The notes beneath the pieces were generated by a model. The model made no database searches. It saw nothing but the letters and a program-made list of their open reading frames with translations, and was not told the DNA's origin. 64,000 nucleotides of DNA from Escherichia coli. GTDB taxonomy: Bacteria > Pseudomonadota > Gammaproteobacteria > Enterobacterales > Enterobacteriaceae. Made by a program: the position numbers and the translations under genes. Shown piece after piece: positions 1,159 to 62,840 of the stretch. The stretch is from assembly GCF_041886205.1 (NCBI RefSeq), contig NZ_CP169029.1. One strand, given 5' to 3'. Numbering within the stretch: position 1 is the stretch's first letter; every line of letters begins with the position of its first letter.

Positions 1159-1944
1159 ATGGGATATTTAAATAACGTCACCGGTTACCGCGATGATTTA
1201 CTGGCTAACCGTGCGATTGTGAAACACGGTAATTTCGCACTGTTAACCCCGGACGGTCTGGTAAAAAATATTATTCCGGGCTTTGAAAATTGTGACGCGA
1301 CAATCCTCTCCACGCCAAAGCTGGGTGCCTCTTTTGTTGATTATCTGGTCACACTGCATCAAAACGGCGGCAACCAACAGGGCTTCGGTGGCGAAGGCAT
1401 TGAAACGTTCCTGTATGTGATCACTGGAAATATCACTGCCAAAGCCGAAGGCAAAACATTTGCCTTAAGCGAAGGTGGCTATCTTTATTGCCCGCCAGGC
1501 TCCTTAATGACGTTTGTTAACGCCCAGGCCGAAGACAGCCAAATCTTTTTATATAAGCGCCGCTATGTTCCGGTAGAAGGCCATGCACCGTGGCTGGTTT
1601 CTGGCAATGCCAGCGAACTGGAACGCATTCACTATGAAGGTATGGATGATGTGATCCTGCTGGATTTTCTGCCCAAAGAGTTAGGTTTTGATATGAACAT
1701 GCATATCCTCTCTTTTGCACCAGGTGCCAGCCACGGTTATATCGAAACACATGTTCAGGAACACGGTGCCTATATTCTTTCCGGTCAGGGGGTTTATAAC
1801 CTCGACAATAACTGGATCCCGGTGAAAAAAGGCGATTACATCTTTATGGGCGCTTATTCTTTACAGGCTGGTTATGGTGTAGGGCGTGGTGAAGCGTTCA
1901 GCTATATTTACTCGAAAGATTGCAACCGCGACGTAGAGTTTTAA
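1159..1944 (+). CDS. allE: (S)-ureidoglycine aminohydrolase (cupin)
   Basis: 261-aa ORF, RBS aggagt upstream, synteny with allC. Confidence 0.88.
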   Translation: MGYLNNVTGYRDDLLANRAIVKHGNFALLTPDGLVKNIIPGFENCDATILSTPKLGASFVDYLVTLHQNGGNQQGFGGEGIETFLYVITGNITAKAEGKTFALSEGGYLYCPPGSLMTFVNAQAEDSQIFLYKRRYVPVEGHAPWLVSGNASELERIHYEGMDDVILLDFLPKELGFDMNMHILSFAPGASHGYIETHVQEHGAYILSGQGVYNLDNNWIPVKKGDYIFMGAYSLQAGYGVGRGEAFSYIYSKDCNRDVEF

Positions 1945-1986
1945 GTCATACCACTCGCCTGATTATTTTTAGCTATGTTGGATTTT

Positions 1987-2013
1987 GCCACGGTTTATAC
2001 CGTGGCTTTTTTT
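1987..2013 (+). terminator. rho-independent terminator after allE
   Basis: gccacgg/ccgtggc stem with tttata loop followed by T7 run. Confidence 0.6.
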
Positions 2014-2020
2014 GTAACAT

Positions 2021-2050
2021 TGCCTGATGCGCTTCGCTTATCAGGCCTAC
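2021..2050. repeat. REP element
   Basis: gcctgatgcg...cttatcaggcctac REP consensus. Confidence 0.7.
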
Positions 2051-2097
2051 ATGATCTCTGCAATATATAGAATTTGCGCGATTTTCAGGAAGGATAT

Positions 2098-2127
2098 AGT
2101 ACTCATGCCGCATCCGGCATGAGTACT
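2098..2127. repeat. perfect 13-bp-stem palindrome between convergent allE and glxK
   Basis: agtactcatgccg-catc-cggcatgagtact read directly. Confidence 0.6.
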
Positions 2128-2171
2128 GCGCTCTTATGCGATATACATCGCATCCACTTTAAAGGTAAGAG

Positions 2172-3317
2172 TCAGTTTTTAATTCCCTGACCTATTTTAA
2201 TGGCGCAGGCAATATTTCGCGCGCTGTTGAAGAGATTGGTTTCACCGCTGGCGAGCACTTCGGCTAAAGGTGCCAGACGTGGCAAAATGCTGAATACCGC
2301 ATCAATGCCGTACTGGTGCACCACTTCCACGCCATCACCCAATACGCCAGCAATCCCAATCACCGGTACATTAAACTGTTTCGCCACCGACGCCACACCC
2401 AGCGGCGCTTTACCGCCTGCCGTTTGCGAGTCGATGCGCCCTTCCCCGGTGATCACCAGTGCTGCCCCCTGCACCGCCTGCTCCAGGTTGACCGCCCGCA
2501 GTACAATCTCAATACCCGGTTTAATATCCGCATTGAGAAATACCGCCGCCGCAATACCCATACCGCCCGCAGCGCCGCCGCCCGCCATCTGGCAGACATT
2601 AATTTCAGTTTGCTGTTGTAAAACACGGGCGTAATTTTGCAGCCCCTGTTCCAGTTCTTCGACCATCTCCGGCGTTGCCCCTTTTTGCGGGCCAAACACC
2701 GCCGCCGCGCCGCGTGCCCCTACCAGCGGGTTATCAACGTCACATGCTACTTCAATATGGCAGTTCGCCAGACGCGGATCGCATTCCTCCATCTCAATGC
2801 TTGCCACGCGCGCTAAATTGCCGCCGTTAGCTGCCAGCACCTGACCGTCGGCATCAAGGAAACGCACACCGAGCGCCTGCGCCATGCCCATACCGCCGTC
2901 GACCGTCGCACTGCCGCCAATGCCGAGAATAATATGGCGAATGCCGTTATCCAGCGCATGACGAATTAACTCCCCCGTACCAAAACTGGAGGCCAGCAAC
3001 GGATTACGCTTTTCAGGCGCGACCAGCATCAGACCACTTGCTGCCGCCATCTCAATCACCGCTGTTTTCCCGTCGCCGTTAAGGCCATAAAAAGCATTCA
3101 CTTTTTCGCCCATCGGCCCGCAGACTTCAAGCGTCACGATGTTGCCGCCCGTCGCGGCGACCATCGCATCCACCGTTCCTTCGCCGCCATCCGCTATCGG
3201 CAAACAGATATAGTTCGCATCGGGAAAGAGGGCCGAAAACCCGGCTTTAATTGCCTGACAACATTTTTCTGCACTTAAGCTCTCTTTAAAAGAGTCTGGC
3301 GCAATGACAATCTTCAT
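2172..3317 (-). CDS. glxK: glycerate 2-kinase
   Basis: ORF starting [14 protein letters not shown] (381 aa from second Met), glycerate kinase family. Confidence 0.9.
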
Positions 3318-15074: not shown

Positions 15075-15137
15075 TGGGCGGTATTCTGAAACGGCGATTG
15101 TCGTGAGAACAGAATGGTTGCACCAGAATACAGATAT

Positions 15138-15167
15138 AAAAAAACCGACATGACAGTCGGTTTTTTT
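15138..15167. terminator. bidirectional rho-independent terminator (A7-ccgac-atgaca-gtcgg-T7)
   Basis: 5-bp GC-rich stem flanked by A-run and T-run, 64 bp downstream of selU stop. Confidence 0.6.
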
Positions 15168-15226
15168 ATTTTTTCCGCCCAAGACTTGGTGGTTCCGGGC
15201 AGAAATGAAACAGTCCTCATCTAGCA
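15138..15226 (-). ncRNA. putative antisense sRNA (candidate type I antitoxin); ends approximate
   Basis: Minus-strand TTGAAT-17bp-TATAAT promoter (15232-15260), predicted transcript contains UGCUAGAUGAGGACUG complementary to 15397-15412, ends at the bidirectional terminator. Confidence 0.35.
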
Positions 15227-15670: not shown

Positions 15671-15771
<101 letters not shown>

Positions 15772-21221: not shown

Positions 21222-21252
21222 CGCCGGATGCGATGCTGCGCATCCGGCATCG
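21222..21252. terminator. REP-like palindrome between convergent cnoX and fetB
   Basis: gccggatgcg-atgct-gcgcatccggc inverted repeat. Confidence 0.55.
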
Positions 21253-29749: not shown

Positions 29750-30038
<289 letters not shown>

Positions 30039-30536: not shown

Positions 30537-31331
30537 ATGGATCTGTTGTACCGGGTAAAAACGCTTTGGGCCGCGCTGCGCGGTAATCATTACACCTGGC
30601 CTGCCATCGATATCACCCTCCCCGGCAATCGCCATTTTCATCTGATTGGCAGTATTCATATGGGTAGCCACGATATGGCTCCCCTGCCCACCCGTTTGCT
30701 CAAAAAGCTCAAAAACGCCGATGCGCTGATCGTCGAGGCGGATGTTTCCACCAGTGATACGCCTTTTGCTAATTTGCCTGCCTGCGAGGCGCTGGAAGAG
30801 CGCATTAGCGAGGAGCAACTCCAAAACCTGCAGCACATTAGCCAGGAGATGGGCATTTCTCCCTCGCTCTTTTCTACCCAACCGCTGTGGCAAATCGCGA
30901 TGGTTCTTCAGGCGACGCAGGCACAAAAACTGGGGCTGCGGGCAGAATACGGTATCGATTACCAGCTATTGCAGGCGGCGAAGCAACAACATAAACCCGT
31001 GATTGAACTGGAAGGGGCTGAAAACCAGATTGCCATGTTGCTCCAGCTCCCTGACAAAGGACTGGCGCTGCTGGACGATACGCTGACCCACTGGCATACC
31101 AACGCACGGTTGCTGCAACAAATGATGAGCTGGTGGCTGAATGCACCGCCGCAAAATAATGATATAACGCTGCCCAATACGTTCAGTCAGTCGCTGTACG
31201 ATGTGCTGATGCATCAGCGAAATCTCGCCTGGCGGGATAAATTACGCGCCATGCCGCCGGGGCGATATGTGGTCGCGGTCGGTGCACTACACCTGTATGG
31301 AGAAGGGAATTTGCCGCAAATGTTGCGCTAA
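30537..31331 (+). CDS. ybaP: TraB-family protein
   Basis: 264-aa ORF, synteny. Confidence 0.85.
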   Translation: MDLLYRVKTLWAALRGNHYTWPAIDITLPGNRHFHLIGSIHMGSHDMAPLPTRLLKKLKNADALIVEADVSTSDTPFANLPACEALEERISEEQLQNLQHISQEMGISPSLFSTQPLWQIAMVLQATQAQKLGLRAEYGIDYQLLQAAKQQHKPVIELEGAENQIAMLLQLPDKGLALLDDTLTHWHTNARLLQQMMSWWLNAPPQNNDITLPNTFSQSLYDVLMHQRNLAWRDKLRAMPPGRYVVAVGALHLYGEGNLPQMLR

Positions 31332-31413
31332 AAAAATGGCCAATATCGCTATTGGCCCGTCAAAGAGGAATTTCATTTTTTTATTATTATGCCGTCACTT
31401 TAAGCGACGGTGT
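31331..31413 (-). ncRNA. chiX: sRNA ChiX (MicM/SroB)
   Basis: Minus-strand sequence acaccgtcgcttaaagtgacggcataataataaaaaaatgaaattcctctttgacgggccaatagcgatattggcc + U-run matches ChiX from memory; terminator hairpin ggccaata/tattggcc. Confidence 0.85.
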
Positions 31414-32018: not shown

Positions 32019-32042
32019 GTGCCGGATGCAAACATCCGGCAC
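32019..32042. terminator. bidirectional hairpin between convergent ybaK and ushA
   Basis: gtgccggatg-caaa-catccggcac. Confidence 0.6.
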
Positions 32043-37088: not shown

Positions 37089-37173
37089 GTAGGCATGATA
37101 AGACGCGCCAGCGTCGCATCAGGCATCGAGAGCCAAATGCCAGATGCGGCGTGAACGCCTTATCTGGCCTACG
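37089..37173. repeat. BIME (REP pair)
   Basis: gtaggcatgataagacgcg...catcaggca and tgccagatgcggcgtgaacgccttatctggcctac. Confidence 0.75.
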
Positions 37174-41409: not shown

Positions 41410-41517
41410 TCAAGAAAGGCACCTGGGGCTGAAACGGTTAATGGCGAGATAAATTGCGGAAAGTGCAGATGATGAAAAGAAAAATGCCGGATGACACGAA
41501 GGTCATCCGGCATGACA

Positions 41518-44488: not shown

Positions 44489-46420
44489 TCAAATGGGGCG
44501 GATACTTTCTTCATCCAGCTCCGCATCGAAAAACCGACGCAGGGTCTGAATATTATTATCCGCAATAATGGACTCGCGCGCCTGCGCAAGTTTTTCTTCG
44601 TATATCGCCTGACGCCACTCCAGCGGCGTACGCACCGCGGGATTATCATCTTCAACGATAGTCAGTTCAACCGTTGAACCTTTTAACATGCTCAACGCTT
44701 CAGCCAGTTTTTGCTGTGCACCGCGGTTGTTCAAATGCCGCTGAGAGGAGCGCAAATGCAGACATACTGCGTTGTCGCTCTCCTCTTTCCAGGCATTTAA
44801 CGCCACCTGTTCGACCAGTTTTGGTAGCGAAAGTTGGCTCACCTGTGCCGCCCACGGGTCGCGCTCAATGGCTTCTGCCGCCAGCTTCGCCGCCAGTTCC
44901 GGCGTTTTTTCATGTTCCAGCGCTTTTTTCAGCGCCTTCGGCGTGGCGACCACTTCTTTTTGCTGCATCACTGGAGTGGTAGCCTTCCAGCGATACGCTT
45001 CTTTTTTGGCTGGCGCTTTTTCCAGCGCCGATGGCACCGGACGCGCCTGAACGCGATCGGTGACCGAAGCCAGTCTTTCCAGCGCAGCGTTATTCACCGG
45101 CCGCGCGCGGGTAGCGGCTGCCGGTTCACTCTTTTTTGCTTTGGTTGCTCCCTGCACGCGCTGCAACTGCTGGCGCGCCGCCAGCACCTGGCTGGTGGTT
45201 TCCGGGAGCGGTACAGTCGGTGCCTGCTGCGGCGCTGATTGCGGTTGCGGCGGCACCTGGGTTGGCGTCATTACTGCCGTTGGCGCGACGGGCGCAAAGG
45301 ACTGGCGTGGCACTTCTGGCTCAGGCAGAGGCATACGTGGATGGAACGCCAGCGCGCGCAGCAGCGTCATCTCAACGCCCATGCGGCGGTCCGGCGCATA
45401 CGGTAATTCTTTGCGACCAATCAACAGCGTCTGATAGTAAAGCTGAATATCCGTCGGCGGTATGGTGCGCGCCAGTTCACGCATCCGCAGCTCAATGGCG
45501 GCCATGTCGTTGCCAAGTGCAGCAGGCGAAAGTTGTACCATCGCAATACGATGCAACAGGCCGAGCATTTCCACCAGCAACGCTTCCCACTCGATACCAC
45601 GGGCAGCGGCTTCATTAATCAGCGCCATTACGCGCTCGCCGTTGGCCTCGACCATCGCTTCAACCAGCGACAGCGCCTGATCGTCATCAAGCGTACCCAG
45701 CATCGCACTGACTGCCTGGGTTGAAACCTGGCCGTCACCGCTGGCAATCGCCTGGTCGGTCAGACTTAAGGCATCTCGCAGGCTGCCTTCAGCGGCGCGC
45801 GCCAGCAATTGCAACGCCCGCGGCTCGTGAGCGATATGTTCTTCGTTGAGGATGTGCTCAAGTTGATGGCGAATTTGCTCGACATCCAGCGCCTTGAGAT
45901 GAAATTGCAAACAGCGCGACAAAATCGTCACCGGCAATTTCTGTGGATCGGTCGTCGCCAGCAGAAACTTAACGTGCTCCGGCGGCTCTTCAAGGGTTTT
46001 TAACAGTGCGTTAAAGCTGTGGCGCGACAGCATATGCACTTCGTCGATCAGATAAACTTTGAAACGACCACGCGCCGGAGCGTACTGGACGTTATCCAGC
46101 AGGTCGCGGGTATCTTCAACTTTGGTGCGCGAGGCGGCGTCGATTTCAATCAGATCGACAAAGCGCCCCTGCTCGATTTCACGACAGTTATCGCACACGC
46201 CGCACGGCGTCGCGGTAATGCCGGTTTCGCAGTTTAGCCCCTTCGCCAGCAGTCGGGCGATAGAGGTTTTTCCGACGCCACGGGTGCCGGAAAAAAGATA
46301 AGCATGATGAATACGCCCTAACGACAAGCCGTTCGCCAGTGCGGTCAGCACATGTTCCTGGCCGACGACGTCAGCAAAGGTTTGTGGGCGCCATTTTCGG
46401 GCTAAGACCTGATAACTCAT
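44489..46420 (-). CDS. dnaX: DNA polymerase III tau/gamma subunits
   Basis: 643-aa ORF with AAA+ Walker A GTRGVGKT. Confidence 0.95.
   Translation of the reverse strand: MSYQVLARKWRPQTFADVVGQEHVLTALANGLSLGRIHHAYLFSGTRGVGKTSIARLLAKGLNCETGITATPCGVCDNCREIEQGRFVDLIEIDAASRTKVEDTRDLLDNVQYAPARGRFKVYLIDEVHMLSRHSFNALLKTLEEPPEHVKFLLATTDPQKLPVTILSRCLQFHLKALDVEQIRHQLEHILNEEHIAHEPRALQLLARAAEGSLRDALSLTDQAIASGDGQVSTQAVSAMLGTLDDDQALSLVEAMVEANGERVMALINEAAARGIEWEALLVEMLGLLHRIAMVQLSPAALGNDMAAIELRMRELARTIPPTDIQLYYQTLLIGRKELPYAPDRRMGVEMTLLRALAFHPRMPLPEPEVPRQSFAPVAPTAVMTPTQVPPQPQSAPQQAPTVPLPETTSQVLAARQQLQRVQGATKAKKSEPAAATRARPVNNAALERLASVTDRVQARPVPSALEKAPAKKEAYRWKATTPVMQQKEVVATPKALKKALEHEKTPELAAKLAAEAIERDPWAAQVSQLSLPKLVEQVALNAWKEESDNAVCLHLRSSQRHLNNRGAQQKLAEALSMLKGSTVELTIVEDDNPAVRTPLEWRQAIYEEKLAQARESIIADNNIQTLRRFFDAELDEESIRPI
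45129..45135 (-). promoter_or_regulatory. dnaX programmed -1 frameshift site (A AAA AAG)
   Basis: Plus-strand cttttttt = minus-strand AAAAAAG; -1 frame reads GAG then UGA. Confidence 0.8.
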
Positions 46421-62726: not shown

Positions 62727-62840
62727 GGGTGGGGGCCCTGCCAGCTACATCCCGGCACACGCGTCATCTGCCTTGGCTGCTTCCTTCCGGACCTGACCTG
62801 GTAAACAGAGTAGCGTTGCGGGAGAACCAACAGAGCCCCC
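62727..62840 (-). ncRNA. ffs: 4.5S RNA (SRP RNA)
   Basis: Reverse complement reads GGGGGCUCUGUUGGUUCUCCCGCAACGC...GGCAGGGCCCCCACCC, 114 nt, matching 4.5S RNA from memory. Confidence 0.95.

Follow-up and report, generated by a model that had tools for sequence, protein, structure and literature searches.

A perfect hairpin between the convergent Escherichia coli genes allE and glxK is very probably the remodelled end of a BIME-1 repeat

REP hairpins are known to stabilise the 3' ends of mRNAs, for example in the case of the malE-malF REPs. A REP is typically recognised by a GTAG or CTAC foot at the base of its stem, by an imperfect palindrome with a two-base mismatch, and by a high copy number. 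In an intrinsic terminator, on the other hand, the hairpin is directly followed by a run of T/U residues. In BIME-1 elements, a z1 and a y REP are split by a long L linker, which frequently contains an IHF site (PMC3333891). Binding and cleavage by TnpA-REP (the REP-associated tyrosine transposase) need the GTAG as well as the two-base mismatch in the stem, and a perfect stem abolishes both activities (PMC3333891). Furthermore, the non-coding DNA of E. coli is about 150-fold enriched in long perfect inverted repeats, and a proposed explanation is that imperfect repeats undergo templated correction (PMC5941160).

The window, i.e., the whole 64-kb stretch of E. coli DNA that was analysed, contains the convergent genes allE (1159-1944, plus strand) and glxK (2172..3317, minus strand, encoding glycerate 3-kinase), both assigned from the list of open reading frames and the RefSeq annotation of the homologous K-12 locus and separated by a spacer of 227 nt. 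An intrinsic terminator of allE with an 8-bp stem and a T7 run was found by a terminator scan at 1987..2013 (plus strand), just upstream of the repeat discussed below. The palindrome, AGTACTCATGCCG-CATC-CGGCATGAGTACT, is located at positions 2098-2127 and has no inherent strand. Its two arms (2098-2110, AGTACTCATGCCG, and 2115-2127, CGGCATGAGTACT) form 13 bp with 100% complementarity around a 4-nt CATC loop, and the stop codon of glxK lies 44 nt away, upstream in the glxK sense. No T-run follows the palindrome on either strand, and the sole call of the terminator scan in its vicinity is the allE terminator, the palindrome itself not being called. The first-pass annotation of this DNA had described a perfect 13-bp-stem hairpin with a catc loop and without a U-tract, situated between convergent allE and glxK beside a REP unit and the allE terminator; this description proved accurate in each of these points, the REP unit being a Y-type REP at 2021-2050.

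Two further features of the spacer were noted. A 46-codon open reading frame (1973-2113, minus strand), which starts in the loop of the palindrome, was set aside on context because it traverses the REP, the linker, and the terminator and because only the long form of the spacer contains it. Moreover, positions 1951-2017 (minus strand) match the Rfam family STnc480 (an enterobacterial sRNA) with 87.6 bits (gathering score 72) and overlap the allE terminator. The core of this match, TTTAGCTATGTTGGATTTTGCCACGG..CCGTGGCTTTTTTT, is kept downstream of allE in Citrobacter, Klebsiella, Raoultella, and Superficieibacter despite diverged flanks, and on the plus strand the region looks like a 3'-UTR-derived sRNA (seed, hairpin, and U-run). 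A literature search for STnc480 found no mention of it.

The 30-mer of the palindrome occurs once in the 64-kb window, where shuffled sequences give an expectation of zero, and a 13-bp stem was reached in only 1 of 200 Markov-1 randomisations of the window. Among the perfect hairpins with loops of 3-8 nt in the 64 kb it ranks second, the top position being held by a 14-bp hairpin at 15136-15169. The palindrome hairpin is the dominant predicted RNA structure on both strands (-25.9 and -25.6 kcal/mol); on the glxK-sense strand, folded in a 61-nt context, the minimum free energy of -25.9 kcal/mol corresponds to z = -5.45. No Rfam family matches the palindrome, the sole match there being a meaningless miRNA model (E = 6.9).

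Three more perfect palindromes of 10-12 bp that contain the REP motif CCGGATG/CATCCGG are found at 41484-41513, 32019-32042, and 21223-21248, so that REP-derived perfect hairpins are not rare in this region. The longest perfect hairpin of the window (14 bp, ATAAAAAAACCGAC..GTCGGTTTTTTTAT, within 15136-15224, minus strand) has the shape of a bidirectional terminator and lies under a match to Rfam AgrB (an antisense RNA of the dinQ region; 53.6 bits, gathering score 40), which is unexpected for this chromosomal location.

A BIME-1, composed of Y REP, L linker, Z1 REP, and tail, lies between allE and glxK, and the palindrome is very probably its Z1-REP end in remodelled form. The first relative was detected as a megablast side match to a block in the glnS-chiP spacer with 84% identity, and positions 2017-2135 of the window can be aligned over their full length with six canonical BIME-1 copies, namely those at about 15.7 kb and 48.5 kb of the window and those at glnS-chiP, uspB-pitA, nagD-asnB, and rlmB-rnr. 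BIME-1 is thus a multi-copy element with two further copies in the window itself, and matches to Z1 plus tail number at least 40 per genome across 5,425 genomes. In all copies, a short conserved left flank is followed by a Y-type REP, the 35-nt linker, a Z1-type REP in inverted orientation (GTAGGCCGGATAAGGCGTTCACGCCGCATCCGGCA), and a conserved tail (TGAACAAAGCGCACTTTGTCAGCAATCTG). Since these shared modules match the BIME-1 architecture, the REP unit next to the palindrome and the palindrome itself are the two ends of one repeat. The earlier suggestion of a REP-related structural element was therefore correct as to the REP derivation, but it had treated the palindrome as separate from the adjoining REP, whereas both are halves of the same BIME-1.

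The whole element (RIP/RIB-type; 2017..2135, plus strand, delimited by alignments) comprises 119 nt. Its Y-type REP (TGCCTGATGCGCTTCGCTTATCAGGCCTAC, 2021..2050, plus strand) has an intact CTAC foot and differs from the consensus of the six copies at 1 of 30 positions. The conserved long L linker follows at 2051..2085 (35 nt, plus strand), with 2 of 27 comparable positions differing from the consensus. The Y REP and the Z1 REP stand in inverse orientation, as in BIME-1, the latter being recognisable by its position and its identical 3' arm. The module order, spacing, sequence, and conserved flanks are those of BIME-1, and the element is likewise extragenic and located just past a terminator. 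It differs from BIME-1 in that its Z1 part has neither a GTAG nor a REP stem, its tail is truncated, and its IHF core carries two mismatches. This degenerate IHF-like core (ATTCTATATATTG, 2061..2073, minus strand, read from the sequence) departs twice from the consensus WATCAANNNNTTR; by scanning, the exact consensus is present only at 15719-15731, in the BIME-1 copy of that region, and absent from the allE-glxK linker. The IHF site is not an obligatory feature, BIME-1 being described as carrying it "frequently" (PMC3333891).

Over the linker, positions 2043-2085 (minus strand) match Rfam ES036/CssrF with 38.1 bits (gathering score 37.6), and the two other BIME-1 copies of the window (15.7 kb and 48.5 kb) fall below the threshold. 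ES036/CssrF therefore appears to represent a subfamily of BIME-1 linkers rather than a unique sRNA gene.

The Z1 half of the element (2086..2119, plus strand, placed by alignment) is decayed. Its canonical head GTAGGCCGG has changed to CAGGAAGG, with the head at allE-glxK reading TCAGGAAGG, and the GTAG foot has been lost and replaced by CAGG. The 5' arm and the loop have diverged as well, and the stem in the REP register is gone (by inspection, about 7 of 13 Watson-Crick pairs remain), while the 3' arm GCCGCATCCGGCA is intact and identical to that of a canonical Z1-type REP at the homologous position. From such a REP the palindrome differs in having no GTAG foot, no 13-position stem with a two-base mismatch, and no TTCA loop context, and its exact sequence is single-copy. 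As indicated by hairpin search, folding, and alignment, the palindrome is a hairpin in a shifted register: its left arm consists of the apical part of Z1 and the start of the Z1 3' arm, its loop and core are GCCG-CATC-CGGC, and its right arm is made up of the end of Z1 and the BIME-1 tail. The tail itself (2120..2135, plus strand) is remodelled and truncated, reading TGAGTACTGCGCTCTT versus the canonical TGAACAAAGCGCACTTTGTCAGCAATCTG.

Divergence from the BIME-1 consensus is concentrated in the Z1 head and in the outer arms of the palindrome. The Z1 head plus 5' arm differ from the six-copy consensus at 4 of 12 positions, the outer left arm at 5 of 9, and the outer right arm at 3 of the 8 positions that have a consensus; the core GCCGCATCCGGC shows no difference (0/12), and the rest of the tail shows one (1/7). 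Every canonical BIME-1 carries a weaker latent hairpin, GTTCAcGCCG-CATC-CGGCaTGAAC, to which the Z1 loop, the 3' arm of Z1, and the beginning of the tail contribute. In canonical copies the predicted fold is nevertheless the REP hairpin (-21.6 to -23.4 kcal/mol), whereas the allE-glxK copy adopts the shifted one. Compared with BIME-1, the dominant fold has moved about 17 nt tailward and is perfect rather than mismatched. The comparison demonstrates that the latent quasi-palindrome of BIME-1 was extended and perfected to 13 bp at this locus by coordinated changes in both arms. Changes at 8-9 of the 18 outer-arm positions end in full complementarity, raising the pairing of the outer arms from 5/9 in the ancestral state to 9/9, with both arms altered at stem positions 9 and 10. 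When nine random substitutions were simulated 2,000,000 times, 9/9 pairing was reached with P = 4.5e-6; the symmetry is accordingly a product of coordinated change and not of drift.

The 227-nt spacer varies among strains. Of 5,426 complete E. coli genomes, 2,360 match it at >=80% coverage, and in most of the others the match is limited to the initial ~72 nt, up to and including the allE terminator. A common alternative is a short allele with a 128-nt spacer, which may be ancestral or may have arisen by deletion, and the 119-nt block at 2017-2135 is what distinguishes the long from the short allele. The long allele is present in about 44% of the 5,426 genomes and the short one in about 53%. 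The genome-wide search for the palindrome that had been proposed earlier was performed with 55- and 66-nt queries on the 5,426 E. coli genomes. It recovered the full palindrome at allE-glxK only, as a single copy restricted to the long allele and present in about 2,367 of 5,426 genomes, together with a 28-nt partial match at ycjW-ompG. The high copy number of a REP unit is accordingly not found for the palindrome. The objection that it may be just one copy of a common REP subclass thus applies to the family, since BIME-1 is present in high copy number, but not to the 13-bp perfect form, which is single-copy and locus-specific.

Four haplotypes of the palindrome were seen, for which genome counts derived from identity bands are approximate. 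The perfect 13-bp form occurs in this window, in O121:H19, and in strain HN68; the majority form (about 1,800 genomes, including K-12 and O55:H7) has 12 bp and an outer G.T pair; a third, in roughly 400 genomes, has A.C at stem position 10 (G.U on the glxK-sense RNA); and a fourth, in about 48 genomes and Escherichia sp. E1V33, combines G-C at position 10 with a loop-adjacent mismatch. Hence, on the glxK-sense strand, G-C, G.U, and A-U are all found at stem position 10. The palindrome retains 12-13 of 13 pairs in all haplotypes seen. Perfect pairing is not strictly maintained, because haplotypes with a stem mismatch (~400 genomes) or a loop-adjacent mismatch exist. Covariation across the four haplotypes is limited to one compensated pair and is not significant, as 251 of 500 shuffles do as well.

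Outside E. coli, the allE-glxK spacer of E. whittamii contains the Y REP, a linker shortened by a 15-nt deletion, the mutated head (CAGGACGG) as in the window, and an unmodified tail; most of Z1 is deleted from its BIME-1, and the palindrome is absent. A different spacer arrangement with remnants of the BIME-1 tail is found in the divergent E. coli strain E69, where a terminator-like hairpin is duplicated and a G/C-rich palindromic insert (CCCCTCGCCCCTTTGGGGAGAGGGG) is present. No BIME is found at this site in Citrobacter, Klebsiella, Raoultella, or Superficieibacter. Given these relatives without the BIME and E. whittamii without the palindrome, the gain of the BIME is specific to Escherichia and the palindrome is a later product of the E. 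coli lineage. On the evidence of these alignments, the allE-glxK spacer is a hotspot of repeat turnover. A simple-insertion model, in which TTCAGGTAAAAAAAG of the short allele was read as homologous to TTCAGGAAGGATATAG, had implied two separate insertions; it was dropped because further BIME-1 copies show the whole 119-nt block to be one unit and also because E. whittamii and strain E69 keep remnants of the BIME-1 tail.

The perfect symmetry may have arisen by point substitutions, with or without selection for an RNA stem, and/or by templated correction, i.e., template switching during replication or conversion between repeat copies; on these routes it would not reflect use as a protein-binding site. 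Templated correction fits the clustered changes in the right arm. As in the quasi-palindrome correction described for E. coli hotspots (PMC7202029, PMC5941160, PMC8794818), an imperfect repeat was made perfect at allE-glxK by clustered complementary changes in its arms. The locus differs from these cases in that a single switch between the ancestral arms cannot yield the palindrome: a one-step template switch between canonical arms is ruled out, as neither arm contains AGTAC/GTACT. In addition, the extant A.C/G.U intermediate with its single mismatch suggests that at least one pair was changed by stepwise substitution. A C-to-T change at stem position 5 of an otherwise canonical copy would be the simplest way to perfect the hairpin; it is found in 10 of 5,426 genomes, a rarity that is expected because this C belongs to the REP stem in an intact REP. 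One such case was observed at uspB-pitA in strain 2013C-3342, where the C-to-T change in a canonical BIME-1 turns the latent hairpin into a perfect 10-bp palindrome; the Y REP of that copy has decayed at the same time (GGCC to GTAT).

The AGTAC cluster is also found in a degenerate REP at ycjW-ompG. By hand calculation, the chance that two loci share this derived cluster is P ~4e-5, and some exchange between the allE-glxK and ycjW-ompG loci, in either direction, is therefore likely to have left this trace. At ycjW-ompG, other E. coli strains carry the degenerate REP as GGATAAAGTACTCG(C/T)GCCGCATCCGGCA, its AGTAC cluster being shared with the left arm of the palindrome. The segment TAAAGTACTCG of this REP is a 10/11 inverted copy of the 3' coding end of ompG (CGAGTAATTTA), located 31 nt away, and these features may represent a template-switch or conversion link between the two loci. 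In strain E57, a single ordinary REP is found at the site instead.

The long and short alleles also differ at the 3' end of glxK. In the short allele, the glxK terminator GGATGCGATTTATATCGCATCT is followed by a run of 6-7 T and was called terminator-like on the glxK strand. The long allele retains the hairpin as a remnant (ATGCGAT-ATAC-ATCGCAT, 2136..2153, minus strand, identified by comparison with the short allele), which abuts the BIME tail that replaces the T-run, and the scan of the long allele found no terminator-like site on the glxK strand. With the T-run missing, transcription of glxK in the long allele is inferred to continue into the BIME, where the hairpin of about -25 kcal/mol would act in the RNA like a REP, as a barrier to 3'-to-5' exonucleases, and this barrier would set or stabilise the 3' end of the glxK mRNA. 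We consider this role a tentative one, its probability lying somewhat below an even chance. Like the REP stabilisers of the malE-malF type, the palindrome is a GC-containing hairpin without a U-tract in a 3' UTR, downstream of a stop codon; it differs from them in that its stem is perfect and not a canonical REP stem, and its stabilising role is putative.

A similarly plausible reading, again somewhat below even, is that the hairpin is a neutral relic, i.e., a mutational by-product of templated perfecting in a dead REP that has no effect on the expression of glxK or allE. The frequency of mismatch-bearing haplotypes, the lack of significant covariation, and the absence of the element from about half of the E. 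coli genomes are in line with neutrality, as is the general enrichment of perfect inverted repeats in non-coding DNA, which possibly has mutational reasons. Against it stands the prediction that a stem of ~-25 kcal/mol placed 44 nt past the stop codon of a gene whose terminator T-run is lost would almost inevitably form and impede exonucleases. Moreover, the orphaned hairpin next to it at 2136-2153 decays, with 3 of its 7 pairs broken without compensation in one haplotype group of the long allele, whereas the palindrome still forms 12-13 of its 13 pairs in all haplotypes seen.

The stabiliser reading can be extended to an exaptation, which we regard as unlikely in its full form. The BIME-1 would have removed the U-tract of glxK, the dead Z1 REP would then have been recruited, and its arms would have co-evolved by templated correction and/or selection (G-C to G.U to A-U), until a new perfect hairpin defined and stabilised the 3' end of glxK. 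If this were true, the ~44/53% polymorphism of long and short alleles would constitute a natural experiment in which the insertion of a repeat broke and then rebuilt the 3' end of a gene.

Less probable still is a replacement terminator of glxK, acquired after the BIME insertion, in which the hairpin drives termination or pausing together with the weak U-containing tract AUAUCCUUCC. A canonical glxK terminator is present in the short allele and absent from the long one, and the hairpin is strong, correctly placed, and, like an intrinsic terminator, a stable stem-loop shortly past a stop codon. However, a hairpin directly followed by a T/U run is not found: just 4 of the first 8 bases are U, which makes a true terminator role less likely. 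The scan makes no call, the 13-bp stem exceeds those of typical terminators, and the genuine terminator of glxK is that of the short allele. Transcription could equally well end by Rho-dependent termination or read on into the Y REP.

The suggestion made at first pass that the palindrome binds a protein, be it as operator for a dimeric regulator or as a nucleoid-protein site, found no support and is now highly improbable. Nothing other than the perfect dyad symmetry with its 4-bp centre speaks for it. The site lies between convergent 3' ends and away from promoters (the one weak promoter-like site of the scan is elsewhere and at chance level), the homology to BIME-1 accounts for every base, and the outer arms vary among strains, with mismatches in the common haplotypes. 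The element is furthermore missing from about half of E. coli and from the loci of the all genes in Citrobacter, Klebsiella, and Raoultella, and the IHF core of the adjoining L linker is itself degraded.

Equally improbable is an active REP, either as substrate of TnpA-REP or as member of a distinct mobile REP subclass. The palindrome is REP-derived and a part of its left arm recurs at ycjW-ompG, but the Z1 half has no GTAG/CTAC at the stem foot, the stem that forms is perfect and lacks the two-base mismatch, and the full palindrome is single-copy. As TnpA-REP needs the GTAG as well as the mismatch and perfect stems abolish its binding, this role is excluded. Finally, a chance palindrome, for which the one randomised window in 200 that reached 13 bp could be cited, is effectively refuted by the P of ~4.5e-6 for 9/9 outer pairs from canonical arms and by the retention of the structure in divergent haplotypes and in Escherichia sp. 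E1V33.

Taken as a whole, the palindrome has the architecture of BIME-1 and the properties of neither a functional REP nor an intrinsic terminator. It is already known in kind, as a degenerate member of the long-known REP/BIME-1 family in the best studied of all bacterial genomes, so that no new category is needed, and its sole unusual feature is the register-shifted, perfected hairpin. Its broader biological weight is little. The locus illustrates that, once the REP stem has decayed, the latent hairpin of canonical BIME-1 (Z1 loop, 3' arm, and tail) can become the dominant structure. Its natural alleles comprise a form with the canonical terminator and BIME forms with a perfect stem, a G.U intermediate, or a mismatch, and they can be used to study the effects of REP-derived hairpins on mRNA 3' ends as well as the genesis of perfect inverted repeats. 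Literature searches on the locus (glxK together with REP, the supplement of a 3'-end mapping study, and the RepRanger supplements) found nothing, and neither glxK nor allE is listed in the supplements of the 3'-end mapping paper.

Elsewhere in the window, matches to Rfam naRNA4 (CssrE) on both strands at 29854-30032 and 37092-37169 correspond to BIME-2-type REP arrays. The minus strand furthermore carries sroB (31330-31413), the dnaX frameshift element (45092-45156), and 4.5S RNA (62736-62832).
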